Numbered from the stretch's first letter, positions 13,650 through 53,559 are shown. The stretch: DNA of 64,000 bases from Promethearchaeota archaeon (GCA_048940605.1 JBHLOJ010000005.1:8254-72253); one strand, 5' to 3'. The notes: a model not told the origin generated them from the letters alone. Made by a program: numbers and translations.

Positions 13650-13964
13650 ATGAAAATTAACAATAATACTGAAGATTTTGAGTTAGATTGCTATTTGAAG
13701 ATACTTGAGTATTTTCAAACTGAAAAAGTAAATCGGGAACAAACTGAGATTTGGAAAGACCATTCCTTAATAGAATTGATGAAATTGCTTGATAAGAAAA
13801 AAAATCGGGTTCTGGTTACTAATGCTCTAATTCTAATGTTGTCTTTATTTGAAGATATCCCTCCTGATATATATAATAATCGTGGAGTTGATATCAATCT
13901 TATATCTCGTAGAGATAGAGAATCTTTAATAGCTGATTTGAAAGAAGAATTTTTGCCTAATTAA
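13650..13964 (+). CDS. hypothetical protein
   Basis: 104-aa ORF after a 300-bp intergenic region. No motif recognised. Confidence 0.4.
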   Translation: MKINNNTEDFELDCYLKILEYFQTEKVNREQTEIWKDHSLIELMKLLDKKKNRVLVTNALILMLSLFEDIPPDIYNNRGVDINLISRRDRESLIADLKEEFLPN

Positions 13965-14075: not shown

Positions 14076-17000
14076 ATGAATCAAGAGAAAAGGTTTTCTT
14101 CTATAAAGAAGAAAGTAAACAGTTTAGGTATTATAGCATTGATATTCTTTTCATTGTTGTTTTTTAATTGTATGTCAAATAAAACCTTCCAATCTGATGA
14201 TAATATTAGTTTTGATGATCAGGAAGAATTTAGACAAGAATTAAAGAATGCTAATGGTGAATCTATAATATTTCAGGGGAATGAACAACCTATTAATATT
14301 ACTGATACTGGAATTCTTAATAAGCAAAATCAAGAGATATCACTATCAAATGAAGAGGTTTTGAACCTTACTTATTTCTTAGATTCTGAACACAATTGGG
14401 AAGCTTCAAAAATTGACACATCTATTAAAAACCTCCAAGATACAAGAAATTGGATAAATAATTCAGGATTCAAATCACCAACTATTTTCAGAAAATATCA
14501 AGTCTCTCAAACAGGGCATCCATACACACAACCTCATAATCCTAATAATGTTATAGATACTATTACTGAAACGGGTGCCACCTACATAAGAGCACATTTT
14601 GTTGAAATAGGATTCGAACGTACTTGGGATTATTTTTTTGTACGCGATGGAAGCAATAATGACCACTTAATAACAGATACCTACAATATAACTAACGTAT
14701 ATAGTCCTTGGATTCCAGGAGATACAATTAAATTTACTTATGAAGCTGATGCTGCAGATCCTTACTATGGTTATTACATGGATTATTACGAATTTCTAAA
14801 CGCTAGTTCAGATTATGATATTAATTCTGATACTTGGGGTTTCAATTATGCTGAAAATGGGGTAAGTGGAACCAATGTTTATGGTGCTGGTGAAACTGGA
14901 AATGCAACTGGTATGTATGTAGGATTATACGGAGAATATGTCAGTCATGAGGAATTTGATTATACAGAAGGTGCATTTTCAGAGCTTTATCAAAATATAA
15001 CTATTCCTCGGGGCCCTATTAAAGACGCTTATTTTAGTTTTGATTATAACGTTCCATTTGGATTGAAATCAAATGATAACTATATGTATTTGAAAATAAA
15101 TAATGAAAAAGTATATTCTAAAGGAATGCGAGATATAATTGAAGCGGGAAAAGGAATTTGGTACAATACGGGTAAAATATATATGGATCTATGGACAAAT
15201 ACATCAGAAATCTTTGATGGTCCATTGAATGAACAGCAATTTAATATATCGGTTGGGATTATGAGTGGAAGTTCCGTGAGTCTCACTTATTTTGAAGAGG
15301 CTTATCAAAATATATTATGGTTTGATAATGTTTCTCTAGTTTTAACTACAACAGCTAATTCTTCTCAAACCGATATAGATCTAAAATTCGATAATACTAG
15401 CTTAATTGAAGAGGATAACTGGGGATCTTCGGTTTTAAATATTACGAAGAGTTGGACTTCAAATCCTATAACATTAGCTATCACCACGACATCACCCTCT
15501 TTAAGCTTCGATATGAATACCACTATATTTGGATATCATAATACTACATCTAAGATTAATCAACAGAATGATAATGGAATATCTTATAAAATATTAGAAA
15601 ACAATACTGTATATTGGGAATTTTTTCATAATTTCTATATGCCCTCACAATATTCAGATTTTGAAATTACCATTTATAAACCTTATAATTGGGAAATCTT
15701 ATCCGTTCTAGATCCTACATATCAATCACGGGAGTTTGAAGAAGGAAATTTTGGAGATCTTTACTTAAAAATAAATCAAACTTCTGCACTATTCCCTGGT
15801 TGGTGGTCTTTCATAGCAACTTCTCCTAACTACATAAATATTTCAAACACAGAAATGTATAAACAAGGTCAATGGGTAGAATCATCATTTACTACAGGTG
15901 AATCTACAAGAATTAGGACCCAGATTAATAATAGTAATGAAATTCCTTCAAATTTATTTTTAACTACAGCAAATTTAACCATCTATGATCCAACGGGTTC
16001 AATTTGGTTTGAAGAGGCTATAACACCTCTATCTAATGGAACAGTACTATTTTCTGAGATTACCTTCACGGCCTTAAATTCTATAGGTGGTCAATATAAT
16101 TATACGATATTTTGGAGTAATGGAACTGACATTGGTGGAGTTAAATCCGACTTTATTGTAAACCATCAAACCTTACTAACTTTATTAAAGCCAGATGACG
16201 CAGTATTAGACTTAAGAACTGAAGGATTTGTAGGTGATATTATTCCAGTAAGAATTCTATTAAAAGATGACGAAAATAATTTTACAATACCTGATGCGAT
16301 TCTATCATATAACTGGTCTGATGGGACTCGATATTTTTCAGATTCAGGCTTAGGTATTTATGAAACAACGTTATTTACTGCGGACTTAGCAATACGAGGA
16401 TTACATAATATAATTATTAATTCTTCAAAACTTGGTTTTATTACTAGTAATATTACTTTGGAAATTAACTTAGGTGAAGAAACAAATATTCAGGTTCTTG
16501 AGTCAGATTATAATATTGAACTGCATGCCAATAGTACAATTAAATTTAAATTCTCCAATTATAATGGTACTGGAATCGATGGAGCATTAGTAAATGTTAG
16601 TATCAGTAACAGTTCGTTATATTCTATTGCTAATCTTGGTGGAGGGATTTATGATGTTGAATTTAGTACTCTTTATATCGATGAAATTGGTATCTATCAG
16701 TTAAATTTTAATTTTTCTGCTGTTGCTTATGAACCTCAATATTATACTCATCAATTTACGATTATAAAGCAATCAGTAAATTTATCAGTTTATATTAATT
16801 CTCAACAGATTAATGAAGATGAGTTAAAAGTAACAGTCTTCAACGAAGAATTTAATATATCTGCACGGGCACGCTCAAGTATAGACGGAGAATATTTAAC
16901 TGGTGGTACAATAACTTGCTGCCACATAAGTGGTAATTTCCAAAAAAATTTAACTATAAACCCAAATTTCTGGTATAATACGACAATAACGTGTTCACCT

Positions 17001-18251
17001 GATAATTTTACTTTATTAAATAACTTAATTTATCTCCAATTTGAACACCCTAATTACAAAACTGCAACATTCGGTTTTCAACTTTTTATAGATCAGATTG
17101 AGATGGAGGTAGAGACAATTAACTTTGAAGACACAATTAATGCAGAAAAAGGAGAAACAATAAATATTCAAATTCAATTGATCGATAATAAAACATCAAA
17201 TCTCATTGAAGATGCGACTATAAAATATATATGGGAGTATGGAATAGGCACTATCAATCAGACAGTTCCGGGAACTTATGAAGCAGATATTAAATTACCA
17301 GAAGGAGTAGACGGAAGCTTTAAATTTGATTTAATAATAACACCTAATAGTTCAATCTACAAATCAACTTTGTACTCTTTTGTTGTTGTAATCGGTGAAC
17401 CTATTGTTAACGGTGGAAGTGAATTTTCAAGCTTGTTATTATGGATAATAATAGGTGTATTAGTAAGTATAGTGAGTGTATTAGGAGTTTTAAGTATGAG
17501 ATCTTATGTTATCTTACCTCGAAAAAGGAAGAAAGAAGCAGAATTGTTAGCAGAAACACAAAGATTTAAGGACCTTAGAAATATCCAGGCTATTGTAATT
17601 GTACATAAATTAAGTGGGATACCTCTTTATTCGAGGAGCTATTCGATTTTAGAAAGACATAAGAAGGAGTTATTCTCAGGTTTTATTCAAGCAATAACAA
17701 CTGTTGGCGAAGAATTTTCTGAAAGAGAAGAAAGTACAGAAGAGTCTGAGGATTCACCAAAAACCTATGGTGTTGAGAAGATTATTGAGTTGGATTTCAA
17801 ATATTTCTACTGTTTAATCGCTGATAAAGATGATGTAAGAGCTGTATTTATTCTTAGAGAAAAATCTTCTGAAAGGTTAAAAAGCCAAATATCTAATTTA
17901 ATTTTAGCCTTAAATTTAAAATTGTCAATGGAATTAGAAAATTGGGATGGCTCTTTAGACAAATTTGAGGAACTAGTTCCTACAATAATAAATGAATATT
18001 TTGAATTACACTATAAAGGCTCTTTTAGATTATCAGAAAAGATGGATCTTCTTAAAATGCGAAAGGAAAAAGATTTAGATAAACTAGAGATCCGCACATT
18101 AAATGTAATCCAATCAGCAGCAAAAAGAAACAATAATGTTGTTAATTTGGATAATATCATTGAATTAGTTAGTGAAGAAAATAAAGATCTCATAATTGTT
18201 GCTATTGAAAGGTTGATTGAGAAAAAATTAATCTCCCCGATTAACTCATAA
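14076..18251 (+). CDS. giant single-pass surface protein: signal peptide, sequon-rich ectodomain, TM helix, cytoplasmic longin-like + winged-helix tail
   Basis: AGGGGA Shine-Dalgarno-like word before the ATG. N-terminal hydrophobic signal (LGIIALIFFSLLFF). About 40 N-x-S/T sequons. TM helix LLLWIIIGVLVSIVSVLGVL followed by PRKRKK (about 17439-17530). The 244-aa tail is homologous to ORF 22908..23423. Confidence 0.8.
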   Translation: MNQEKRFSSIKKKVNSLGIIALIFFSLLFFNCMSNKTFQSDDNISFDDQEEFRQELKNANGESIIFQGNEQPINITDTGILNKQNQEISLSNEEVLNLTYFLDSEHNWEASKIDTSIKNLQDTRNWINNSGFKSPTIFRKYQVSQTGHPYTQPHNPNNVIDTITETGATYIRAHFVEIGFERTWDYFFVRDGSNNDHLITDTYNITNVYSPWIPGDTIKFTYEADAADPYYGYYMDYYEFLNASSDYDINSDTWGFNYAENGVSGTNVYGAGETGNATGMYVGLYGEYVSHEEFDYTEGAFSELYQNITIPRGPIKDAYFSFDYNVPFGLKSNDNYMYLKINNEKVYSKGMRDIIEAGKGIWYNTGKIYMDLWTNTSEIFDGPLNEQQFNISVGIMSGSSVSLTYFEEAYQNILWFDNVSLVLTTTANSSQTDIDLKFDNTSLIEEDNWGSSVLNITKSWTSNPITLAITTTSPSLSFDMNTTIFGYHNTTSKINQQNDNGISYKILENNTVYWEFFHNFYMPSQYSDFEITIYKPYNWEILSVLDPTYQSREFEEGNFGDLYLKINQTSALFPGWWSFIATSPNYINISNTEMYKQGQWVESSFTTGESTRIRTQINNSNEIPSNLFLTTANLTIYDPTGSIWFEEAITPLSNGTVLFSEITFTALNSIGGQYNYTIFWSNGTDIGGVKSDFIVNHQTLLTLLKPDDAVLDLRTEGFVGDIIPVRILLKDDENNFTIPDAILSYNWSDGTRYFSDSGLGIYETTLFTADLAIRGLHNIIINSSKLGFITSNITLEINLGEETNIQVLESDYNIELHANSTIKFKFSNYNGTGIDGALVNVSISNSSLYSIANLGGGIYDVEFSTLYIDEIGIYQLNFNFSAVAYEPQYYTHQFTIIKQSVNLSVYINSQQINEDELKVTVFNEEFNISARARSSIDGEYLTGGTITCCHISGNFQKNLTINPNFWYNTTITCSPDNFTLLNNLIYLQFEHPNYKTATFGFQLFIDQIEMEVETINFEDTINAEKGETINIQIQLIDNKTSNLIEDATIKYIWEYGIGTINQTVPGTYEADIKLPEGVDGSFKFDLIITPNSSIYKSTLYSFVVVIGEPIVNGGSEFSSLLLWIIIGVLVSIVSVLGVLSMRSYVILPRKRKKEAELLAETQRFKDLRNIQAIVIVHKLSGIPLYSRSYSILERHKKELFSGFIQAITTVGEEFSEREESTEESEDSPKTYGVEKIIELDFKYFYCLIADKDDVRAVFILREKSSERLKSQISNLILALNLKLSMELENWDGSLDKFEELVPTIINEYFELHYKGSFRLSEKMDLLKMRKEKDLDKLEIRTLNVIQSAAKRNNNVVNLDNIIELVSEENKDLIIVAIERLIEKKLISPINS

Positions 18252-18299
18252 ACTTATAACAAAAAAATTCAAATTTTACTCTTCTTTTTTTTTATTTTG

Positions 18300-18920
18300 A
18301 TGCTAAATCCGAAGAACTTAAAATTCGTCTGTACTCGTTGTGGAAATTGCTGTACAGATCGAAATACCCTTGTCAATGTTACTTATCTGGATATATTAAG
18401 AATAGTTAAAGGATTAAAATTATCATTGGAAGAATCACTTGAAATTTTCGGATTTTATGTCTATACTGAAACTTTAGACAACAATATTCTTAAAAAAATG
18501 GTAATTTCACCAATAGAAACTGAAAGAGGATTAGCATTCATTGGGCTCATGAAGAAAGATAATTTTGAGTGTTATTTTTATGATGCTGAAAATAAGATGT
18601 GTTTAATTCATAGCTTAAGACCTATGTTTTGTAGGTCTTTCCCCTTTTCTTTCATACCTTTTAGGGATAAAGATAATATTAGTGAAGAAAAAATTGAGAT
18701 TATTTATACAGAGAAAGCTATAGAATATTGTCTGGGAATAGGATATGATGCACCTCTAATCGATACAGATTATTGGTTTAATTTAGCAAATAATACCCTA
18801 AGTGAATTAAAGGATAATTATACTTTTAATAAAAAGTGGAATAATAGTATTAAGAATAAAGATATTCTTCCTTTAGCAAAGAATTATATTAAAAAAATTT
18901 TTAAATTGATTGAAGACTAA
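18300..18920 (+). CDS. YkgJ/UPF0153-family Cys-cluster (Zn/Fe-binding) protein
   Basis: CTRCGNCC N-terminal motif plus the downstream C..Y......C.I......P..CR.FP pattern. Confidence 0.6.
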   Translation: MLNPKNLKFVCTRCGNCCTDRNTLVNVTYLDILRIVKGLKLSLEESLEIFGFYVYTETLDNNILKKMVISPIETERGLAFIGLMKKDNFECYFYDAENKMCLIHSLRPMFCRSFPFSFIPFRDKDNISEEKIEIIYTEKAIEYCLGIGYDAPLIDTDYWFNLANNTLSELKDNYTFNKKWNNSIKNKDILPLAKNYIKKIFKLIED

Positions 18921-18962: not shown

Positions 18963-20717
18963 TTAAAGATTTAATAAATTATCAGGAGAATATTGAGAGC
19001 ATGCTAATAAAGCCCAAAATAACATTCTTAATTCTATTTTATATGCTATTTTATCAATACGCCAATTAAAATCTTTATCAAGATTTTCTAGCGAAAAGAA
19101 TTCTGTAGATTTTATAATGTAATTAAGTAACCTACTACATAATATTGATTCTTGTTCTTTTAAATCGAGTATATCTAGAATTAATAACACCTTGGCAGAT
19201 TCTGTTATTGAATCATCGATAGATCCTTTAGAAGTTAATAATTTTTTAAGTTCATTCATATAAGGCACAAAAAATCTAGCAAGATCAACTTTTTTTTCCA
19301 GACAATTAATTATAGATAACTGACTATAAATATCTAAAGTTGGGTTAAAATTCTTCCTATTTAAGATATCTAAATTTAATACCTGATTTAGTATGTTATT
19401 TTTAAATGACGAAATTACTTCGCTTTTTGCTAGCAGCCTAAAACAAAGAAGAACATAATAAGTCATTTTTAATTTCTCAGGCAGAAACTCCTCCAATTCT
19501 ATTTTAAGAAATTCCTCAGTAGCATTCAGGTTTATAATGTTAGTTCTATGAATTAAATTTAATTCAGTAACAATTGAAAGACCATAAAATATACTAATTG
19601 GATCTGGCATTATATTTTTTGTTATGCTAAAAACCATTTCAGTTGTGTGATTCCTAAGAAAATCTAATATTTCAATTGCTGTGAAAGGAAATTCTATGTT
19701 TGCCATTTTTAAAATAGATATATAGTAGAAGAGATTTTCTAAATCTATAAAATCTGGATTAACCACTCTTGAATTTAAAAAATTACCAATGTTAATTTTG
19801 AATTTATTTAAAATATCTTGATGTACAATGGGTAAATTACCGAATTGGTCAAGAAAATTCACTTTTTGAGACTCAAGAATTAATTCTCTTGGGATAGTTT
19901 TCAAGTTAGTTGAATTTAAAGAAGACAGTTGATTAACTCCTTCTATAGAATCTAGAGGTTTTTTTTCAGAAATCGTGTTTTCAAATTGATCTATTGAAGG
20001 TTTTATCAGTTCTTTTTTTGGTGTTTTTAAAGTTTCAATAAAATCTTTCTTAGCTTCTTGTAATTGTTCAAGTATATTTGGTTCTCCACTGCTTTTCTGT
20101 TCAAGTTTTTCTGTTCCTTTCTCTTTTTTCATGGGGGAGTCGGCTTTTTTTGGATTCATATTGTATGTTTTTATATTAATAGATAAATCTGAAAAATTTA
20201 AATGTTCTTCAATACCCGGGAAAGTAATATAAGATTTAGCTTTGGAATTTAGATATGTTTTTTTAAATTCATCTAATTTATCCTCGAAACTTTGCGTAAT
20301 TAATTTAAATAGCTTCAAAGTTTCTATTTTGTGTGTATCTAAATCCAGTAAATATTCAATTAAGATTTCAAATAGTAGTTTATTGATGTAATCTGCAAAA
20401 TAGAAATTGAAATAAGAATAATAATCATGCAACTCTGGTTTTATTATCCTTTCTGCTTTCAAATAATTATTTTGAATTTTAGATAATTTGTTAATTGGTA
20501 CTCCAATCGTATTTAATCCTGTTTTTATTGCCTTTGACATCTTCAAAAGTGTATTCTTTACATTTTCCTTGCTCTCTTTAGAAGGATCTTCTCTTAAATC
20601 AACATTTTTATACGAAATGAGGTCTCTTAAATATAAATGAGTTTTACCATAATAATCTAACACTTCATTCCTCAAAAATTGTGAGAATTTTGTAAGAAAA
20701 ATAACAATTTCTTCCAT
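18963..20717 (-). CDS. hypothetical protein with a C-terminal alpha-helical repeat region
   Basis: 584-aa ORF. The central part is a K/E/P-rich, probably disordered linker. The C-terminal half has recurring amphipathic helices of about 45 aa (FYYISILKM, FYGLSIVTEL, TYYVLLCFRLL, IYSQLSIINCL, LFWALLACSQY). Confidence 0.55.
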   Translation of the reverse strand: MEEIVIFLTKFSQFLRNEVLDYYGKTHLYLRDLISYKNVDLREDPSKESKENVKNTLLKMSKAIKTGLNTIGVPINKLSKIQNNYLKAERIIKPELHDYYSYFNFYFADYINKLLFEILIEYLLDLDTHKIETLKLFKLITQSFEDKLDEFKKTYLNSKAKSYITFPGIEEHLNFSDLSINIKTYNMNPKKADSPMKKEKGTEKLEQKSSGEPNILEQLQEAKKDFIETLKTPKKELIKPSIDQFENTISEKKPLDSIEGVNQLSSLNSTNLKTIPRELILESQKVNFLDQFGNLPIVHQDILNKFKINIGNFLNSRVVNPDFIDLENLFYYISILKMANIEFPFTAIEILDFLRNHTTEMVFSITKNIMPDPISIFYGLSIVTELNLIHRTNIINLNATEEFLKIELEEFLPEKLKMTYYVLLCFRLLAKSEVISSFKNNILNQVLNLDILNRKNFNPTLDIYSQLSIINCLEKKVDLARFFVPYMNELKKLLTSKGSIDDSITESAKVLLILDILDLKEQESILCSRLLNYIIKSTEFFSLENLDKDFNWRIDKIAYKIELRMLFWALLACSQYSPDNLLNL

Positions 20718-20812: not shown

Positions 20813-21574
20813 ATGGAGGGTTATAACTATAACCACATTGCAAAAGACTATCATTCAAAAAGAAGAAAACCATGGAGACCGCTTGAGTTCTTTTTAGATT
20901 TTCTGAATAAAAAGAAGTATGAATTCAATGGGATTTGTTTAGATTTAGGATGTGCTAATGGTAGAAACTTTAAAATATTAGGAACTTATCCAAAAAAAGT
21001 AATAGGGATTGATCTATCACTTGAATTCTTAAAGATTGCTCGTGGTGATTTAAGAAATTCTGATCGTTATTCTAAACTTGAAGCAAATCTCATTCAGGTT
21101 CTTCATGCTGATATAAAATATCTTCCCATTAGACCAAATTCAGTCCAAAATATATACTCAATTGCTACAATTCATCATATAAAAAATAAATCCGATAGAA
21201 AAGATTTAATAACACAAATCAATGATATCATTAAGAAAGATGGTAATTTAGTTATTACTGTATGGCGAAAATGGCAAAAAAAATACAGAAGCTATTTTCT
21301 TTTAGATGGCATTAAAAGAAAGCTTAGTTATAATCATGATGAGAAACAAAAAATGGTGGGATTGGAGGAACCGGGTGATAAATTTATCCCATGGAGACTT
21401 ACTGGAGAAGATAAAGCATATTATAGATTTTATCATTTTTTCTCCAAGCGTGAGATAAAGAAATTACTAAAGATCTTTGAGATTAAAGAATTTAAAATAA
21501 TGGGTGGTCCTAATAATAACGATAACTTTTTTATACTTGCTCAAAAAAGAATAAAATTTAATGACATTCAATAG
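20813..21574 (+). CDS. class I SAM-dependent methyltransferase, Trm9/ALKBH8-like
   Basis: Motif I LDLGCANGRN. SIATIHHI, the post-motif VITVWRKWQ, and PW....YYRFYHFFSKREI resemble tRNA mcm5U methyltransferase Trm9. Confidence 0.55.
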   Translation: MEGYNYNHIAKDYHSKRRKPWRPLEFFLDFLNKKKYEFNGICLDLGCANGRNFKILGTYPKKVIGIDLSLEFLKIARGDLRNSDRYSKLEANLIQVLHADIKYLPIRPNSVQNIYSIATIHHIKNKSDRKDLITQINDIIKKDGNLVITVWRKWQKKYRSYFLLDGIKRKLSYNHDEKQKMVGLEEPGDKFIPWRLTGEDKAYYRFYHFFSKREIKKLLKIFEIKEFKIMGGPNNNDNFFILAQKRIKFNDIQ

Positions 21575-22088
21575 AATTATATGATTTTATAATATATGGT
21601 TGATAATTTTCATTCATGTTTTCTATTATGGAAGTGTGAATATCAAATAGTCGTTCAGAAATGTCACAATAGAAAATCCCATGTACAACTTTTTCAACAT
21701 AATATCTCTTTCTTATCATTTTTCTACGCTGACCAAACCAAAACGTAAATTCGTGGCTCATTAACCAATCTCTCTCTTTTTTAGTAACAACAATGCCAAT
21801 TGCATTATAAGTATCAATACTCTTTTCTATTTCTTTATAATAGAAAAGATTCAATCTTTCTCTTTTTTCCCATTTTATTTCAAGTTTGGCATTTGGTCCC
21901 CAAATCTCATCATAATCTGTTTGAGAATGTAAGATAATGTATCCATTATTCTCATCCCCTTTATATTCTATCTCTTTAAACCAAATGGGCATCTTATTAA
22001 TATTTAATTTACATTCTGGCTTATTATATATGTAAAAATTATATTCCATTTTTATGCTCGTTATAAATGATTTAAGTTTTGCAAACAA
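21558..22088 (-). CDS. hypothetical protein
   Basis: 176-aa ORF. Its 3' end overlaps the convergent methyltransferase gene by 17 nt. No motif recognised. Confidence 0.45.
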   Translation of the reverse strand: MFAKLKSFITSIKMEYNFYIYNKPECKLNINKMPIWFKEIEYKGDENNGYIILHSQTDYDEIWGPNAKLEIKWEKRERLNLFYYKEIEKSIDTYNAIGIVVTKKERDWLMSHEFTFWFGQRRKMIRKRYYVEKVVHGIFYCDISERLFDIHTSIIENMNENYQPYIIKSYNSIECH

Positions 22089-22907: not shown

Positions 22908-23423
22908 TCAAGATATATTTACTAGCCTAATAATGTCCAGCTTTTCTAATTTCTTAAGGGCATCATTAATATCATTTCTTTTTCTATTTAAAGTTCTTGA
23001 AATCTTCAATGGAGAGGTTTTCCCCGAGCATAATAATGCGATTTGAAATTCAAAATTATCAATCATTCCCATGGTCAATACTTTTTCTAATACATTTTTA
23101 GCAATAAGTAATTTTGGGAATACCTCTGCTATTTTCCCTCCTATAGTCAGATTCTCAATATCTGCATTTAACGTTTGGAACCTACTTTTTTCGGTTGTAG
23201 TTCGGAATACTTTAAGATCAGATTGGTGTTTTTTCCAAAAACGATTAGCAATTTTATGAATAACTTCTTTTATTTTTTCAGTATCATCATCCGCATCTGA
23301 AATTGAACAGAAAAGAATTCTAGATAAAGGATGATAATATATAAAAATTGTTGAATCTTCAGACTCAACTACTCTATTCATCTCATTTACTCGTCTTCCT
23401 TTTTTCATTGATTCTTGTATCAT
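22908..23423 (-). CDS. soluble longin-like + winged-helix protein (annotated part; the homologous frame continues upstream to 23579)
   Basis: Homologous to the cytoplasmic tail of the 1391-aa protein. The C-terminal wHTH-like segment is KTSPLKISRTLNRKRNDINDALKKLEKLDIIRLV. See the finding on the in-frame TAA. Confidence 0.55.
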   Translation of the reverse strand: MIQESMKKGRRVNEMNRVVESEDSTIFIYYHPLSRILFCSISDADDDTEKIKEVIHKIANRFWKKHQSDLKVFRTTTEKSRFQTLNADIENLTIGGKIAEVFPKLLIAKNVLEKVLTMGMIDNFEFQIALLCSGKTSPLKISRTLNRKRNDINDALKKLEKLDIIRLVNIS

Positions 23424-23757
23424 ATCAATTGTTTTATTAATAGCATTAAAAAATCCAGTTAAAGATCTATCTTGAATTTTCTTTAATTCTTTAAATGTTG
23501 TTTCAAAAATTGAGATTCCGTTATCTGCATCGATTAAATATGTTTTATATATAATAGAATCCTCAACCTGACTTTTTCGTTAAGAGATGTAAAAGTTAAA
23601 ATTTGCTTCTATCATTAAACACATAAAAATTTACTATAATAAACGTATCCGAACAAAAACTAAGATATCCATTTCATCTAATAACTAAAGAAATAAAATT
23701 ATAAGTTGAGAGTTTTATACATTTTATAATAAAAATTAATATCCTACAATTTTAACA

Positions 23758-24951
23758 ATGAAAGATAAGGCTAAGTACATTGTAATATATTTACTTTTTT
23801 TCCCTATTGTATTTTCAGCTTATTCAACAAGCCCATTGCTTTCTATGGCATCGTATACTAATCCCTCCATTGCATCACCGATTTTTGGTGTTTCTAATTT
23901 TGAAATAACTCAAAATGTAACATACCAAGTTGAAATCAATTTTACACTGACACAAACCATAGGATCTGGAAATTATTATTTTAAATTTTCTAGAATAAAT
24001 AGTTCATTAGATTTTATGTATACACCACCATATCAAGATAGCGAACTTCTATATAACAATATAACGGGATACGATACGATCCTTATGAATGTTAAAGATA
24101 AATTTAACAATACTCATGATTGGTTTAATGCTACGTTAGGTGCTGGAGAAAATGTTTCAATAAGTCAAAAATATATTGTCGGATTGAATGCAATTAAATT
24201 TTCTGGGATCAGCGAATCTGAGATTGGGATGTATGACACTGCAGATGAAATGTTTGAATTATACTGTAATAAATCAGAACCTTATTATGAAAGGAATGAC
24301 ACGTCTTTAATTTCGTTATCAAATAGTATTGTAAATCCTAGCGATAATCCTATAGAAAAAGCAAAAAAGATTTGTAATTGGGTTTCTGATAATATTGAAT
24401 ATACCGGGGATCTACCTAACGAGATGGGAGCTTTTTGGGCATATAATAATTCAAAAGGTGATTGTAGTGAGTTTTCAAGCTTAATGATTACATTATTGCG
24501 AATTCAAAATATCCCTGCTCGTAAAGTAACAGGTTATTTAGTATCGAATAATCCTTCATTACGCCCAAAACCAGGGGATACGTGGAGTTTTAATGCCAAT
24601 GAAATTATGGGACATGCATGGATGGAATATTATGTTCCTGATATAGGATGGATAGCTTGTGATCCCTTATGGGGATATTTTAATAGAATCGATTATCTTC
24701 GCTTTAATTTAAATGTGGGTGCGAATTTTTTCTTTCCACCTAGTTATATTATAAGTGAATTCGATACATTATTCTATGCAACTTCAGGATTCCATAATTA
24801 TGATTACAACATTACCATTACTGTTATAGAATCTAATCTCGCTCCTTTAGATTCAGTTCCATTGATGTTTTATTTGTTTATTGGAATTGGGTTAGCTGCA
24901 GTATTAATCACTGTTCTTCTTATAATACGAATTAAGAGACACAAAGGATAA
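23758..24951 (+). CDS. secreted, C-terminally anchored transglutaminase-like cysteine protease-fold protein
   Basis: N-terminal signal (YIVIYLLFFPIVFSAYS). Transglutaminase core Cys-His-Asp (GDCSEFSSLM, GHAWMEYY, ACDP). C-terminal TM helix plus RIKRHKG. Confidence 0.75.
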   Translation: MKDKAKYIVIYLLFFPIVFSAYSTSPLLSMASYTNPSIASPIFGVSNFEITQNVTYQVEINFTLTQTIGSGNYYFKFSRINSSLDFMYTPPYQDSELLYNNITGYDTILMNVKDKFNNTHDWFNATLGAGENVSISQKYIVGLNAIKFSGISESEIGMYDTADEMFELYCNKSEPYYERNDTSLISLSNSIVNPSDNPIEKAKKICNWVSDNIEYTGDLPNEMGAFWAYNNSKGDCSEFSSLMITLLRIQNIPARKVTGYLVSNNPSLRPKPGDTWSFNANEIMGHAWMEYYVPDIGWIACDPLWGYFNRIDYLRFNLNVGANFFFPPSYIISEFDTLFYATSGFHNYDYNITITVIESNLAPLDSVPLMFYLFIGIGLAAVLITVLLIIRIKRHKG

Positions 24952-24984: not shown

Positions 24985-26451
24985 TTAAATATACGTATGA
25001 ATTAAATCTACAAGGTTTTTAGAAAAATCTGGTAAATTCTTTTCAATTTTTTCGATTTGGAGAGATTTTTCAATAAATAATAGCAAGTATAGATTATACT
25101 TATCAACCTGGATTTTTTTAAATATTATTTTTTTCGATTCATCTGCTATTCCTGAAGATACTAGAAAATCCTGTTGTAAAATCTTGAACTCTTTGAATGT
25201 TTTATACAGTTCTTGAAAATGAGGAGCAGAAATTTCAAATACTTTTTCAGAAATTTCATCTTTAGAAAAATTAGATAAAATAATTCCATTTTCATTTAAT
25301 AATAATATTGCATCTGAATTGGTTTTTTTAGCAAACTTTTTTAATTGATTTCTAAATAGTTCCCGATTAGGACTCAATTGTGAAAGCCCAAAGGAATATG
25401 CTGTTATTAGACTCCAGTGATCGAAAATACTAGTTTGGAAAATCTTAATTAAGAATCTATCAGAATTCTTCTCTATCTCATCAGCAATTATCTCTAAATT
25501 CTTAAAAATTTCTTTTGAGCCTTTTAAATCTGGATCAAATTTATTTAAGCAAATTACGATAGGAGGGAATTCCTCCAAATCAATTAAGGAGTCTATAATC
25601 TTTCTGAAAAGCTTTAAAGCTTCTCCAATCCTATCAACGTCTTGAATATCAATAAAGAAGTAAATTAGATCAACATTATATAGATAAACTTTACTTTGTT
25701 CAAGGAATCTCTCTCGGTATTGTTTTTGACCAGCTAAATCCCATAGTGTGATCACAGAATTTTGCTCTTCAAAAATATGTTCTTCAGATCTTTCGACTCC
25801 CCTAGTAGGTAAAGCTTTTATAATTTCTGAATACCTTCTTCTTATCCCTAATAGAAAACTTGATTTCCCTGCTTTATCTAATCCTGTTAATAGTACTTTG
25901 ATTTGACGCCTTACAGAGAATGGATCTTTTAGATCTTTTGTGAACTCAAACAATTCCTCTCTAATTTCATCCATAATTCTTTTATGATCGTCCAGTTCTT
26001 TATCTGTTTGTATCTGTGTAGCTGCTTTATCAATCATTATTCTCAAATATTTCATGTTTTCATAAAAAAAGACTCTATCATCCTCATTGATTAATATAGT
26101 AATAGTAGCGGCTAGAGCTTGACCACGTGCAGTTTCTTCAGGAATGAGAAAAAAATATGTTAAACCATTTAATTTCAAATCTGGAAATGGTAAGATACCG
26201 AAATAGTTAACTCCTACATCTGAACCTTGTGAGTCTTGATAAACTGAATCACCCATAAGCAAACTTATAGTTTTCATAGCAATTAAAAGTCCAGATTTCT
26301 CATCTAAATCAATGGGCCAAACAACTCTAGGTGTTGGACCTCTTTCATCGAATATACTTAAAACAATTGCTTTTATTAAGTCAGAGTTGTCAATCTCTGC
26401 ATTTTCTTTATTAACTTGTTTCCCATTCAATTTAGATTCGTTATTAGTCAA
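24985..26451 (-). CDS. three-domain GTPase: novel N-terminal longin-like domain + Rag/Gtr1-like G domain + C-terminal roadblock domain
   Basis: G1 GLDKAGKS, G3 WDLAGQ, G4 NKFD. The G5 region and junction QTSIFDHWSLITAYSFGLSQLSPNRELFRNQLKKFA resemble RagA [34 protein letters not shown]. About 130 aa follow with a roadblock-like alpha-beta-beta-alpha-beta-beta-alpha pattern. Confidence 0.7.
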   Translation of the reverse strand: MTNNESKLNGKQVNKENAEIDNSDLIKAIVLSIFDERGPTPRVVWPIDLDEKSGLLIAMKTISLLMGDSVYQDSQGSDVGVNYFGILPFPDLKLNGLTYFFLIPEETARGQALAATITILINEDDRVFFYENMKYLRIMIDKAATQIQTDKELDDHKRIMDEIREELFEFTKDLKDPFSVRRQIKVLLTGLDKAGKSSFLLGIRRRYSEIIKALPTRGVERSEEHIFEEQNSVITLWDLAGQKQYRERFLEQSKVYLYNVDLIYFFIDIQDVDRIGEALKLFRKIIDSLIDLEEFPPIVICLNKFDPDLKGSKEIFKNLEIIADEIEKNSDRFLIKIFQTSIFDHWSLITAYSFGLSQLSPNRELFRNQLKKFAKKTNSDAILLLNENGIILSNFSKDEISEKVFEISAPHFQELYKTFKEFKILQQDFLVSSGIADESKKIIFKKIQVDKYNLYLLLFIEKSLQIEKIEKNLPDFSKNLVDLIHTYI

Positions 26452-30657: not shown

Positions 30658-31635
30658 CTACTTATAAATAATCTCTTTAATTATATTTGCAAAAGTTTCA
30701 AAATCTTCTTTTTGAAAAACGGGATCATCCTTAAGTAACAATAAATAATAGGGAGTTGACTCTTTTTTCAATGTTATCTGTTTAAATATAAAATTTTTTC
30801 CAAATCTTTGGAGTAGCATCCTATCTTCGTATCTATTTTCTTGTACTCCCGTATATTGGAGTGAATCTGAAAGGGTAAGAAAATAAGGTGTCGAAGCGGT
30901 GAGTAAATGCTTAGTTTCTTCATTCTTATAATATGCACCAATCACTAGAGAGTTATCATCAATAACCACCACTCCTTCTGAGTCAATTTTCTTGGCAAAC
31001 TCGATTATTGTTTTTTCAATGAGTTCCGATTTTGGATATAAGCTTAGTAGAATTTCTGACATTGCCCTTATAATAGTTCCAAAATCATAAATGGAAGTCT
31101 CATAAAAATATATTTCCTTATAATCAGTAGCGCTTTTTACTTTCTCTTTTAAATCTATGATGAGATTTTCCATTTCATTTCGTGCTCCTCTTCGTAAGGC
31201 AGGATCATATTTATGAAGAAATACATATATGGGAGGTTCAATTTCTAATTCATAAAATTGTTTAATTACATCCTTAAAATAGCTAATAGCTTCAGGGATT
31301 CTGGGTTTATTTTGAACATCGATAACATAGATTGCAATTTCAGTACCCTCGAAAAATTTACCTGGATTCTTTAAATATGAGATTCTATAGCTAATTTGTC
31401 CACCTAAATCCCATTCTGAGATTTCTTTTCCTAGAAAATCGAAAACCCTTCTTTGGGCACCTCTAGTTGGAGATAATACAGCAATTTTTGAAAATTCTCT
31501 TTGAAGAGACAGTATAATGCTGGTCTTCCCCGCATCATCCAATCCAGTGAATAATAATTTTGAGGGCTCTGGTTTCTGTGGCTCTTCCTTTTTCAAATAC
31601 ATTATTGATTGTTTTAGATCTTTCTCCAAAGTCAA
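30658..31635 (-). CDS. Rag/Gtr1-family GTPase (G domain + C-terminal roadblock domain)
   Basis: 325 aa (human RagA is 313 aa). G1 GLDDAGKTS, G3 WDLGGQ. G4 is HKYD, which matches the Rag-type HKxD rather than NKxD. AIYVIDV (RagA LIYVFDV). ETSIYDFGTIIRAMSEILLSLYPKS (RagA [23 protein letters not shown]). Roadblock-like C-terminal 125 aa. Confidence 0.75.
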   Translation of the reverse strand: MTLEKDLKQSIMYLKKEEPQKPEPSKLLFTGLDDAGKTSIILSLQREFSKIAVLSPTRGAQRRVFDFLGKEISEWDLGGQISYRISYLKNPGKFFEGTEIAIYVIDVQNKPRIPEAISYFKDVIKQFYELEIEPPIYVFLHKYDPALRRGARNEMENLIIDLKEKVKSATDYKEIYFYETSIYDFGTIIRAMSEILLSLYPKSELIEKTIIEFAKKIDSEGVVVIDDNSLVIGAYYKNEETKHLLTASTPYFLTLSDSLQYTGVQENRYEDRMLLQRFGKNFIFKQITLKKESTPYYLLLLKDDPVFQKEDFETFANIIKEIIYK

Positions 31636-50013: not shown

Positions 50014-51054
50014 ATGGAAAGACAAATAATTAGGGGCATTATATACAATACTCTAGATGAGCAGATTGGTCCTAATCCTAAAGTATACCTACCAGAGGAT
50101 TTTTCTCAATTAGATTTACTCCATATTAGTGTCAAAACTTTTGCGGTTCTTACAGGTGAGGGAGGACTTATACCTGAATCCTTGGTCGTATTACCATTTC
50201 CATCCTTACAATTAAAAGGATTGACTAAATATATGCAATGGGAAGATCCTGATAAACGAGGTGGCGTTGGTCATGCCAATATCACAGTTTTGTTTCAAGA
50301 AATGGATGATGTAATTTTTTATAAATATATAAAGGAAATTTCAGTTCCTTTTAATGAAATTGTTCAAAATATTACGTTCTTAGAAAAATCTAATGCAAAT
50401 GAAGACCAATTTTTAAATGAATTAATAAACCTTGAAAATGGAATTACTGAACTTTTAGAGTATCTGAGAAATCAAGAATTAAAAGAATCTAAAATCGAAG
50501 CTTTAGATCAAGCCATAGATCGAAGTATGATTGATTTTCAATTTAAGATAATTGTAGTTGGGGATCCGACCGTTGGAAAAACAAGTTTAGTCTTAAGATA
50601 TACGAATAATGCATTTAGGAGATCATATGTTTCTACGATGGGAGTTCATGTTTCTAATAAAATTTTTAGAGCTGATGATTCTACAATTATTCAACTTGTT
50701 TTATGGGATGTGGGAGGTCAAGAAAGATTTAAAATTATGAGAAAACAGTTTTATCAAGGATCCGATGCGGTATTTTTAGTTTTTGACTTAACAAATCCTG
50801 AAACATTCAGTAATATCCCCGTTTGGTTTTCGGACATTAAAAAACAAATGGAATTACGTGGCGAAGATCTTATAGGTTATGTCATTGGTAATAAAAAAGA
50901 TTTGGAGAATGAAAAGAAAATTACTAGTGAGGATGCTCAAAGATTAGCCCAAAAGTTTAATTTAGAGTATCTTGAAACGTCAGCTTTATCGGGAGAAAAT
51001 GTAGATTATGCCTTCACAACTCTCGCTAAAATACTTTACAAGTCTAGAATGTAA
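50014..51054 (+). CDS. two-domain GTPase: novel N-terminal longin-like domain + Rab/Ras-like G domain
   Basis: G1 GDPTVGKTS, switch I YVSTMG, G3 WDVGGQERF, G4 GNKKDL, G5 ETSALSG. The N-terminal 125 aa align with the N-domains of ORFs at 24985 and 36455. Confidence 0.75.
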   Translation: MERQIIRGIIYNTLDEQIGPNPKVYLPEDFSQLDLLHISVKTFAVLTGEGGLIPESLVVLPFPSLQLKGLTKYMQWEDPDKRGGVGHANITVLFQEMDDVIFYKYIKEISVPFNEIVQNITFLEKSNANEDQFLNELINLENGITELLEYLRNQELKESKIEALDQAIDRSMIDFQFKIIVVGDPTVGKTSLVLRYTNNAFRRSYVSTMGVHVSNKIFRADDSTIIQLVLWDVGGQERFKIMRKQFYQGSDAVFLVFDLTNPETFSNIPVWFSDIKKQMELRGEDLIGYVIGNKKDLENEKKITSEDAQRLAQKFNLEYLETSALSGENVDYAFTTLAKILYKSRM

Positions 51055-51219: not shown

Positions 51220-52245
51220 ATGTCTCAAGAGATTATCAAAGCAATCATATATACTTCGCTTGATGAAAACCTCGGTCCGAATCCTGTTTTATGGATTCCA
51301 CTTGATTTACCAGAAAAGATTCGTATGGGTGTAAGTATTAAAACTATTACTATGCTTACCACTGATCAAGGAATAGTTCCTAATTCATTAGTAATAATGC
51401 CTTTCCCTGCCTTCAAATTAAAAGGAATTATAAAATATATTGAGAGAGAAGATGACTCTCGACGAGGAGGTGTAGCATTATCATCAATAGCCCTGTTGTT
51501 TAATGAGACGGATGATCCTATTTTTTATAAGTATATGGAATATCTTGAGCCCATATTTTCTGAATGTGCTAACAACCTTATTGTTTTAGAAAATGGGGAA
51601 GCAAAAAGTGATGAAATCTTTATTGAGATACATCATTTCCGTCAAAAATTAACTGAATTATTAGATGATTTATATCAAAAAGAAATAACATCTTCTGAAA
51701 TAGAAGCTTTTCCTGAGGAGGAAATTAAAGAAGAATTACTAGAGTATAATTTCAAATTGATCGTATGTGGTGATCCAGGAGTAGGAAAAACTAGTACAAT
51801 TTTAAGATTCACAGATAACGCTTTTATGCGAACTTATGTGCCTACCCTTGGTGTAAGCATTTCCGAAAGACTAGTATCATTAGGAGATAAACACATCAAT
51901 CTAATTTTGTGGGATATCGCAGGACAATCAAAATTTGAAATAATGAGAAGACACTTTTATAAAGGTACCGACGCCGTGATTCTAATATTTGATCTGACAA
52001 ACCGTAAATCATTTGAAAGTGTTTCTAATTGGATTAATGATATAAGAAAATATGAGCAGGAAATAATAGGGCTAATTTTAGGAAATAAGGAAGATCTAAT
52101 AGGTGAGCGAAAAATTCCTACTGAAGAAGCCTTAGAGATTGCTAAAACTTTTAATTTTGAATATGCTGAAACATCTGCATTAACAGGTAAAAATGTAGAG
52201 CAAAGTTTTTATAAAGTAGCAGAAACTTTATTTAAATCAAAATAA
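51220..52245 (+). CDS. two-domain GTPase, tandem paralog of 50014..51054
   Basis: G1 GDPGVGKTS, G3 WDIAGQSKF, G4 GNKEDL, G5 ETSALTG. Same N-terminal domain (IIKAIIYTSLDENLGPNPVLWIP, MPFPAFKLKG, LLFNETDDPIFYKYMEYL). Confidence 0.75.
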   Translation: MSQEIIKAIIYTSLDENLGPNPVLWIPLDLPEKIRMGVSIKTITMLTTDQGIVPNSLVIMPFPAFKLKGIIKYIEREDDSRRGGVALSSIALLFNETDDPIFYKYMEYLEPIFSECANNLIVLENGEAKSDEIFIEIHHFRQKLTELLDDLYQKEITSSEIEAFPEEEIKEELLEYNFKLIVCGDPGVGKTSTILRFTDNAFMRTYVPTLGVSISERLVSLGDKHINLILWDIAGQSKFEIMRRHFYKGTDAVILIFDLTNRKSFESVSNWINDIRKYEQEIIGLILGNKEDLIGERKIPTEEALEIAKTFNFEYAETSALTGKNVEQSFYKVAETLFKSK

Positions 52246-52989: not shown

Positions 52990-53559
52990 CTATTTTGAAT
53001 CCTTTAATTCATTAAGGGTCGCTTTAGATTCATGGTATAATTTTTTGATTATAGCTTGAAAGGCATCATATACACGTTCGCCTGTTTTCGCTGAGGTTAA
53101 ATAATAACCAAGAAGGTTTTTTTTCTTTACTAATCTTTCAATTTTAGCATTATCTATATTATCCTTATTAACAAGATCAACTTTATTAGCGAAAATTATA
53201 ATAGGTATGGCTCCACAAAATTGCTTTAAATCGTCATACCAATGTATAACATTCTTAAGACTTTCCTTACCAAGCTTATTTTCTTCAAGTGAATAAACAA
53301 TTATTCCTGCTCTACTGTCCTTATAAAAAGATGGACGTAAGAAATGAAACTCATCCTGACCAGCGATATCCCAAAAAAATAACAAGCATTGATCATTTTC
53401 TATTTCCTCTACATATTTCGAAAATTGGGCTCCTAATGTTTTTATATATTCTTTTTGGAAACTACCTTTAGTAAATTTTTGAATTAAACTAGTTTTTCCC
53501 ACCATACCATCTCCAACGACAGTAACTTTAAACTTAAATATATCTTGAGGTTTATTCAT
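52990..53559 (-). CDS. stand-alone Rab/Ras-like small GTPase
   Basis: G1 GDGMVGKTS, switch I YIKTLG, G3 WDIAGQDEF, G4 ANKVDL, G5 TSAKTG. 189 aa with no C-terminal Cys. Confidence 0.8.
   Translation of the reverse strand: MNKPQDIFKFKVTVVGDGMVGKTSLIQKFTKGSFQKEYIKTLGAQFSKYVEEIENDQCLLFFWDIAGQDEFHFLRPSFYKDSRAGIIVYSLEENKLGKESLKNVIHWYDDLKQFCGAIPIIIFANKVDLVNKDNIDNAKIERLVKKKNLLGYYLTSAKTGERVYDAFQAIIKKLYHESKATLNELKDSK

Follow-up and report, generated by a model that had tools for sequence, protein, structure and literature searches.

A conserved cytoplasmic tail of predicted longin/roadblock fold beneath exchangeable ectodomains in Asgard surface proteins

A 64,000-nucleotide (nt) stretch of a Promethearchaeota archaeon genome (GCA_048940605.1 JBHLOJ010000005.1:8254-72253; G+C about 30%), hereafter the window, contains a gene at 14076..18251 for a giant receptor-like protein of 1391 amino acids (aa), called the receptor below. 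With a probability of about 0.9, the receptor is a type-I, single-pass surface protein of the Lokiarchaeota type, N-glycosylated by prediction, that belongs to a conserved, unannotated family in which a constant C-terminal cassette carries exchangeable ectodomains. The cassette runs from the transmembrane helix through an R-S-Y-V-x-L-P interface motif and a basic juxtamembrane helix to a domain of predicted longin/roadblock fold and a short, non-basic winged-helix-like domain. The architecture, a new family and domain arrangement built from known folds, is apparently undescribed: in the literature covered, the asCOG tables (which possibly bin the family) lying outside the search, no transmembrane glycoprotein with a cytoplasmic longin/roadblock-winged-helix cassette was found. 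What the cassette does is more tentative. Its most likely role, at a probability of about 0.4, is that of a longin/roadblock platform fixed to the membrane, which would connect a variable adhesin or sensor on the surface with a partner in the cytosol.

A constant cassette beneath variable ectodomains

The receptor is laid out as follows (window coordinates, strand, feature):
14076..18251, plus strand: whole gene, ATG start, 1391 aa, stop codon 18249-18251; predicted type-I membrane glycoprotein with orthologues in about 70 Asgard loci
14076..14180, plus strand: N-terminal leader, aa 1-35; by hydropathy scan, a basic n-region (KRFSSIKKK) and an 18-aa hydrophobic core, aa 16-34
14181..17429, plus strand: ectodomain, aa 36-1118 (1083 aa), rich in N/T/S/I/Y, with 41 N-x-S/T sequons
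14181..14945, plus strand: variable N-terminal head, aa ~36-290, replaced by unrelated sequence in several syntenic orthologues
16728..17090, plus strand: membrane-proximal stalk module of about 110-120 aa, aa ~885-1005, one copy
17430..17498, plus strand: single transmembrane helix, aa 1119-1141, from hydropathy and column conservation; small residues (G/S) abundant
17499..17582, plus strand: membrane interface and juxtamembrane helix, aa 1142-1169 (RSYVILPRKRKKEAELLAETQRFKDLRN), the receptor's most conserved stretch
17583..18011, plus strand: longin/roadblock-fold domain, aa 1170-1312 (tail residues 23-165), β-β-α-β-β-β-α-α in the AlphaFold2 model and by Foldseek
18039..18248, plus strand: C-terminal winged-helix-like unit, aa 1322-1391, α-β-α-α-β by DSSP of the model, its wing truncated by the C-terminus

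The open reading frame (ORF) reported in an earlier note on this DNA agrees in coordinates and length with the ORF list and the translation, and the note's ectodomain of about 1100 aa with some 40 sequons and its 244-aa tail at 17517..18248 also hold. Its single transmembrane helix stands, but not at the position given (about 17439-17513), which lies some 10-15 nt downstream of the segment found here. A hydropathy scan of the whole protein yields two hydrophobic segments only, the transmembrane helix and the core of the leader, which is a signal peptide or a signal anchor. The receptor has 42 sequons: the 41 in the ectodomain compare with 18.7±3.7 expected from composition-preserving shuffles (z about 6), and the tail has none. 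Directly after the transmembrane helix comes the segment PRKRKKE; six K/R are found in the 12 residues on the inside and none in the 15 residues on the outside. The positive-inside rule and the asymmetry of the sequons therefore argue for a cytoplasmic tail, with the C-terminus inside rather than outside the cell. A leader, one transmembrane helix, an N-out/C-in orientation and sequons confined to the outside describe a type-I single-pass glycoprotein, glycosylation itself being predicted.

About 80 orthologues and paralogues share this layout, with an N-terminal hydrophobic segment (kept in nearly all full-length orthologues), one transmembrane helix, and 25-55 sequons before the last transmembrane helix in full-length genes. 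Their tails have 0-2 sequons, in one case 3, and their ectodomains are 440-1570 aa long, exceeding 690 aa in all but one. A phmmer search of 1.84 billion representatives gathers, for the tail, 293 clusters (50% identity) at E<=1e-3, of which 113 reach E<=1e-10. Nearly all clusters have the match C-terminal; the proteins span 250-2275 aa and are almost always surface proteins of 950-2300 aa. A scan of species representatives, one genome per species, found 128 loci, and the 80 that were kept are all Asgard, several genomes having two copies. On this sequence evidence the tail defines an unannotated Asgard family, found mostly in Lokiarchaeota metagenome-assembled genomes (MAGs), with apparently one orthologue per genome. 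Every homologue is from an Asgard MAG, and by far the commonest label is Promethearchaeota or Promethearchaeia, as NCBI calls Lokiarchaeota. The receptor sequence is present only in sediment and soil metagenome DNA runs.

Constraint is spread unevenly along the protein. Mean identity to the window protein among 62 long relatives is 38% in the N-terminal head and 43% in the rest of the ectodomain, against 66% both in the transmembrane and juxtamembrane segment and in the tail α/β domain, and 50% in the tail winged helix. Six residues of the interface and juxtamembrane helix (R1142, Y1144, P1148, Q1162, D1166 and N1169) are 100% conserved in 80 sequences, which fits a fixed geometry relative to the membrane, and G1181, G1202-F1203 and R1255 are invariant in 46 tail sequences. 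Judged by identity, the transmembrane-tail cassette is under stronger constraint than the ectodomain.

The window ectodomain has no Pfam or PDB sequence match, and comparison with its relatives shows it to be modular. BLASTP alignments to the orthologues L004, L008 and L012 begin only at window aa ~293-307, and syntenic orthologues whose first 200-300 residues are unrelated are still 73-88% identical in the tail α/β domain. The stalk module occurs in 4 and 5 tandem copies in the longer orthologues P0076 and P0085 (BLASTP, 33-46% identity). The second-copy genes L046 and L063 resemble the window protein in the transmembrane helix and tail only (BLASTP); their ectodomains consist of DUF2341 and Laminin_G_3 (ConA-like lectin) domains, with Big_7 in addition in L063. 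In distant members of the family, Ig domains of Big_1-like and macroglobulin-like type occur, as do additional helical repeats at the C-terminus. The tail does recur on different ectodomains, a point that the earlier note had left for a survey of homologues: head replacement, stalk copy number and the DUF2341 and LamG heads all show that the fast-evolving ectodomains are modular and exchangeable on a constant C-terminal cassette.

Several records call for care in judging the family. MAGs labelled Hodarchaeota, Thorarchaeota, Hermodarchaeota and Odinarchaeota (L004, L009, L020, L043 and others) share the gene block, with 59-84% tail identity to Promethearchaeota MAGs, and their NCBI labels are probably unreliable for judging phyletic range. 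The receptor gene is split in some public assemblies, into ORFs of 858 and 268 aa in L002 (7281-10807) and into a string of small ORFs in L084 (5980-10945); frameshift or assembly errors are the most likely cause, and such splits account for many "short" database members. The contig of the distant member P0337 is a frameshift-ridden assembly. Three "tail-only" proteins are probably truncated, P0195 and P0162 starting <=30 nt from contig ends and P0171 overlapping an upstream ORF on a 1.3-kb contig, so that an ectodomain-less form is not supported.

Predicted fold of the tail and of its soluble look-alike

AlphaFold2, given an alignment of the window tail and 45 homologues (46 sequences, 32-86% identity), predicts a folded rather than a disordered tail, with a mean predicted local distance difference test score (pLDDT) of 80.4 and a predicted TM-score (pTM) of 0.74; the five models score 77-80. 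The juxtamembrane helix (tail residues 2-22, pLDDT 76-84) precedes an α/β domain whose core reaches pLDDT 86-92 and in which DSSP assigns, in tail numbering, E23-30, E36-41, H50-74, E88-93, E98-104, E107-113, H119-135, H137-141 and H148-161. An acidic, low-confidence loop spans tail residues 72-84 (17730-17768). The result is a five-stranded antiparallel sheet in β-β-α-β-β-β order flanked by helices, the arrangement by which the longin/roadblock superfamily is recognised.

Foldseek searches of the PDB point to the same superfamily. All 11 matches to the tail at E<=1e-3 are longin/roadblock proteins at probability 1.0: LC7 (7k5b_F), ζ-COP (3tjz_C, 5mc7_A), a COPI coatomer chain (9qpq_L), LAMTOR2/3 chains (6ehr_B, 6b9x_B, 5yk3_C, 5y3a_G) and AP-1/AP-2 σ (2vgl_S, 9ddt_B). 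They are followed, at E 1e-3 to 4e-3, by a Thor roadblock (7f8m_B), TRAPP Bet5-type proteins and MglB (6hjm_P), and nearly all of the top 50 matches, archaeal roadblocks among them, come from the superfamily, at target-normalised TM-scores of 0.5-0.72. The superfamily's two branches are not separated by these scores, as the roadblock (LC7, LAMTOR) and longin (ζ-COP, AP σ) matches score equally. The tail also combines traits of both: its conserved helix ahead of β1 is typical of roadblocks, whereas two or more helices after β5, which it has as well, are typical of longins (PMC10933270). The tail α/β domain is therefore assigned, by its modelled fold, to the superfamily and not to a subclass. 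The β-β-α start and winged helix-turn-helix (wHTH)-like end that the earlier note had read from the sequence reappear in the AlphaFold2 model. Its term "longin-like" holds at the level of the superfamily, by AlphaFold2 and Foldseek, but not for longins in particular, given the equal roadblock matches and the lack of a profile match: a Pfam scan of the tail at E<=0.1 returns no family, and Robl_LC7, Longin, Clat_adaptor_s and similar families are absent from the Pfam matches of 46 family members at E<=1.

The C-terminal unit has winged-helix topology in the model (H189-203, E208-210, H211-217, H223-235, E239-241; pLDDT 82-88). Winged-helix profiles give no match to the window tail, and one family member matches Pfam HTH_27 at 7.8e-5. 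The unit presents no basic, DNA-contacting surface: its net charge is +1 in the window and -0.2±1.9 across the family, and its third ("recognition") helix, KDLIIVAIERLIEK, is hydrophobic. The near-zero family charge argues for a protein-binding over a DNA-binding winged helix.

A second protein of the same layout is encoded nearby:
22908..23555, minus strand: soluble 215-aa longin-like protein with a basic wHTH, probable ATT start, highly conserved and syntenic

The minus-strand frame opens at 23579, the first codon after the upstream stop, with no ATG, GTG or TTG before the ATG at 23423. Orthologues (211-213 aa) begin TTG-ATA-TAT-AAA; the window has ATT-ATA-TAT-AAA at 23555, with GAGGA five bases before the ATT. 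The orthologous TTG and the GAGGA therefore make 22908..23555, with a non-canonical ATT start and 215 aa, the most likely extent of the gene. A standard ORF caller would cut the protein to 171 aa (start 23423), losing β1-β2-α1.

The soluble protein has 432 homologues, with 71-91% identity among the 120 matches listed. Its AlphaFold2 model (pLDDT 70.7, pTM 0.54) shows β-(β)-α-β-β-β-α-α followed by a helix-turn-helix (HTH), and Foldseek ranks the longin domains of Sec22b and VAMP7 best (E 7e-3 to 3e-2), then Ragulator/EGO roadblocks; a PDB sequence search with the protein's profile found nothing. The HTH is basic, its net charge being +6 in the window protein and +3.0±1.7 over the family, and it matches Pfam TrmB weakly (E 1e-4), its 22.5 bits falling short of the 25.6-bit cut-off. 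In sequence the protein resembles the tail marginally but specifically, as seen by BLASTP (22% over 83 aa, E 0.015), by hhalign (38 columns over β1-β2-α1, P 3e-4) and with the tail hidden Markov model, for which the soluble protein is the best non-self match among all window ORFs (E 7e-4). Common ancestry of the two is plausible. The two-domain layout that the earlier note saw in this protein is upheld by AlphaFold2 and Foldseek, whereas its coordinates, 22908..23579, give way to a start at 23555 and its sequence link to the tail is weak.

Proposed function, genomic setting and alternatives

The platform reading may be spelled out as follows. The variable ectodomain would bind a target outside, be it a partner cell, matrix or glycan, and would set where or when the platform is engaged. 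The interface motif and juxtamembrane helix would hold the longin/roadblock domain rigidly at the inner membrane face. This domain would pair into a dimeric platform, with a second receptor chain or with the soluble look-alike, which is highly conserved and co-syntenic in about 60 species; to our knowledge, all characterised longin/roadblock members dimerise. The dimer would dock a cytosolic partner where the surface protein sits, most plausibly an Asgard small GTPase by analogy with Ragulator-Rag, MglB-MglA, SRα-SRβ, TRAPP and longin GTPase-activating protein (GAP) complexes, and the neutral winged helix may offer a second protein-binding surface, making it an adaptor rather than a DNA binder. 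Dimerisation, the identity of the partner and any direction of signalling are inferred. Roadblock/longin dimers are GTPase platforms and abundant in Asgards (PMC10933270; bioRxiv 10.1101/2020.10.19.343400).

Known systems resemble the receptor in parts. Roadblock/LC7-MglB-LAMTOR proteins (LAMTOR2/3; the Asgard roadblocks 7F8M and 7YH1) share with the tail the β-β-α-β-β-β sandwich and an N-terminal helix before β1, but they are small and soluble, of about 100-125 aa, with no extracellular or winged-helix domain attached. Ragulator is, like the tail, a membrane-attached platform, in its case for Rag GTPases, although it reaches the membrane via lipidated LAMTOR1 and not via a transmembrane helix. 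Longins (AP σ/ζ-COP, Sec22b/VAMP7, the SRX domain of SRα) have the β-β-α-β-β-β-α-α order of the tail, with two helices after β5, and the SNAREs and SRα among them work at membranes, as is proposed for the tail; canonical longins lack the tail's N-terminal helix, however, and longin SNAREs are tail-anchored proteins that bear this domain at the N-terminus and lack an ectodomain. Adhesin-like type-I surface proteins of Lokiarchaeota match the receptor in signal peptide, long, repeat-containing, sequon-rich ectodomain and C-terminal transmembrane helix, yet the descriptions found mention no conserved folded cytoplasmic domain, whereas the tail, with its juxtamembrane helix, is the most conserved part of the receptor.

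A further close parallel is the layout of NPRL2/NPRL3 in GATOR1, where a longin domain is followed by a small helical/winged-helix C-terminal domain, as in the tail and the soluble paralogue, and where two look-alike chains form a heterodimer acting on Rag GTPases. Weak Foldseek matches to GATOR1 entries occur for the tail (9o5a_C) and the paralogue (9o5d_D, 9o5a_H); the KICSTOR-GATOR1 chains matched by the paralogue have 368-370 residues, and the entries contain NPRL2. The invariant R1255 (tail R108), R or K in 8/9 distant members, lies just before β5, the place of NPRL2 Arg78 ('KKYSR-NALLFNLGFV') when the two are compared by topology alone. In hhalign, the tail and paralogue families align to the human NPRL2 longin (residues 1-167) with a probability of <1%, a single-sequence template giving this comparison low power. 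The GAP-type longins NPRL2/FLCN/SMCR8 are recognised by a G-P dipeptide that closes the β1-β2 loop (PMC12290439). The tail has S-G-I-P instead, with the G invariant and the P >=90% conserved in close members; the P is missing in 8/9 distant members, the motif is G-L-P even where it remains, and the paralogue has N-G-I-S. Neither comparison supports membership in the GAP longins, which is not claimed. "NPRL2-like" families reported in Asgards are soluble or fused to two-component domains, and do not sit on transmembrane glycoproteins as the tail does (bioRxiv 10.1101/2020.10.19.343400).

The receptor belongs to a block with the order 104-aa protein, receptor, CxxCxxCC protein, 584-aa protein (minus strand), methyltransferase, 176-aa protein (minus), HhH protein (minus), soluble paralogue (minus), transglutaminase-like surface protein, Rag-like GTPase (minus) and NrdD (minus). 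Of the 80 species-genome loci about 60 preserve this order, as do both contigs reached by way of homologues, and it persists down to tail identities of about 50%. Besides the soluble paralogue, the block includes:
18297..18920, plus strand: putative metal-binding CxxCxxCC protein (PF03692), 46 nt after the receptor stop, Pfam E 4e-11
23758..24951, plus strand: transglutaminase-like surface protein with signal peptide, sequon-rich region, core matched by Pfam at E 2.6e-26 and C-terminal transmembrane helix
24985..26451, minus strand: nearest small GTPase, 488 aa, Gtr1/RagA-like G domain at aa 185-397 (Pfam), syntenic in about 55 loci

The CxxCxxCC gene adjoins the receptor in nearly all orthologous loci, is absent at second copies and is possibly co-transcribed with the receptor. 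The transglutaminase-like protein, between the soluble paralogue and the GTPase, is syntenic in most loci and has a tail of 8 residues. The GTPase lies 6.7 kb from the receptor on the opposite strand with seven genes between, and is a candidate partner with weak linkage. Its N-terminal domain of about 170 aa contains FDERGPTPRVVWP and TARGQALAATITIL; G38-P39 and A108-R109-G110 are 98% conserved in 55 orthologues and resemble the GP-motif and arginine signature of GAP-type longins (PMC12290439), here fused to the protein's own GTPase. In hhalign, the N- and C-terminal domains of this GTPase show no similarity to the tail and paralogue profiles.

Elsewhere in the block, the 104-, 584- and 176-aa proteins (13650-13964, plus; 18963-20717, minus; 21558-22088, minus) have no Pfam or NCBIfam match and are conserved at constant places near the receptor gene in dozens of Lokiarchaeota genomes. 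Three Ras/Rab-like GTPases stand within 3.6 kb at 50014-51054 (plus), 51220-52245 (plus) and 52990-53559 (minus), two of them with unannotated N-terminal extensions of about 175 aa.

Several results weigh against the platform reading. Foldseek matches the tail at modest E-values of 3e-4 to 4e-3 and at target-normalised TM-scores of 0.5-0.7. Sequence profiles from Pfam, NCBIfam, PHROGs and the PDB give it no match and no link to characterised longin/roadblock families, and some longin and roadblock proteins serve functions unrelated to GTPases. The whole block of about 15 kb is syntenic across Lokiarchaeota, housekeeping genes (NrdD, methyltransferase) included, and therefore gives the GTPase no special standing. 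The 64-kb window encodes five small GTPases, of which two (24985..26451 and 30658..31635) are Gtr1/RagA-like and the other three Ras/Rab-like, so proximity to the receptor means little. Second receptor copies have no GTPase or soluble paralogue within 10 kb, and mirror-tree comparison of the tail with each neighbour over 42 loci gives partial correlations of 0.03-0.27 with no clear outlier. The density of GTPases, the synteny of the whole block and the second copies without GTPases lead us to reject proximity as evidence for the earlier note's suggestion that the tail may recruit the neighbouring GTPases, which is left as an analogy. Asgard GTPases are generally not in operons with longin/roadblock partners (PMC10933270), and the missing linkage is therefore no evidence against an interaction either.

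A bolder version of the platform, which we think improbable, would make the cassette an archaeal transmembrane counterpart of Ragulator/GATOR, in which a heterodimer of the tail and the soluble longin-winged-helix protein docks the neighbouring Rag-like GTPases, one of which itself has an N-terminal longin-like domain. The invariant Arg1255 would perhaps regulate the docked GTPases, and a Rag-type switch would receive the signal when the ectodomain is engaged, for example by a syntrophic partner touching the cell.

Other explanations call for no GTPase. The receptor could be a structural surface-coat protein, one of many adhesin-like glycoproteins making up an irregular envelope without an S-layer. 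Its tail would then do no more than anchor, oligomerise or sort it, for instance through side-by-side packing beneath the membrane or binding to the cytoskeleton, and would have no part in signalling; this is possible, if somewhat doubtful. Lokiarchaeota have no S-layer and irregular surface densities, and predictions place about a quarter of their proteins in a membrane-bound, extracellular class that has a signal peptide, repeats and a transmembrane helix (bioRxiv 10.1101/2025.07.22.663070); this picture of the envelope favours a coat. One orthologue at a fixed locus in about 60 species is what a core envelope component would show, the conserved transmembrane helix rich in small residues suits lateral packing, and second copies have no GTPase linkage. 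A folded two-domain tail of 244 aa that is more conserved than the ectodomain far exceeds the needs of an anchor, though; the transglutaminase-like neighbour has a tail of only 8 residues, and the longin/roadblock fold is an interaction platform wherever it has been studied (PMC10933270).

Membrane-tethered gene regulation appears unlikely. It would have the tail winged helix bind DNA, as in ToxR and CadC, or the tail hold the paralogue, as a transcription factor, at the membrane by longin-longin pairing until engagement of the ectodomain releases it. An HTH-type unit does end both proteins, that of the paralogue is basic and resembles TrmB (at a score under the Pfam gathering threshold), about 60 species have both genes in shared synteny, and the paralogue has the highest, though small, mirror-tree partial correlation with the tail, 0.27; the tail's own winged helix, however, is neutral to acidic with a hydrophobic "recognition" helix, and second receptor copies lack the soluble paralogue nearby. 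Least probable of all is a modelling artefact, in which an unrelated α/β fold owes its likeness to the common β-β-α-β-β-β arrangement. In favour of this, sequence-profile support from Pfam, NCBIfam or the PDB is missing, Foldseek E-values are only about 1e-3 to 1e-4, with root-mean-square deviations often of 5-9 Å, and the alignment is shallow in diversity. Against this stand the agreement of the five AlphaFold2 models, the single superfamily that supplies every Foldseek match under E 1e-3 and almost the entire top 50, the independent model of the paralogue, which falls in the same superfamily, and the massive expansion of this superfamily in the Asgard lineage (bioRxiv 10.1101/2020.10.19.343400).

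Significance for Asgard cell biology

Asgards have hundreds of longin/roadblock proteins and small GTPases whose cellular roles are largely obscure, and gene order rarely reveals their partners (PMC10933270). The family described here places one such "eukaryotic signature" fold, as predicted, at the inner face of the plasma membrane beneath a variable surface adhesin or lectin, and what binds the tail becomes a question that can be tested in cultured Lokiarchaeota. The Asgard cell surface mediates the syntrophic contacts central to models of eukaryogenesis, and the receptor would be the first candidate for a physical link between this surface and eukaryote-like trafficking or signalling modules. 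If the Ragulator/GATOR-like version were true, it would represent a prokaryotic precursor of eukaryotic surface-to-GTPase signalling; even if the tail is purely structural, the family would be a useful marker of, and a handle on, the unusual envelope of Lokiarchaeota.

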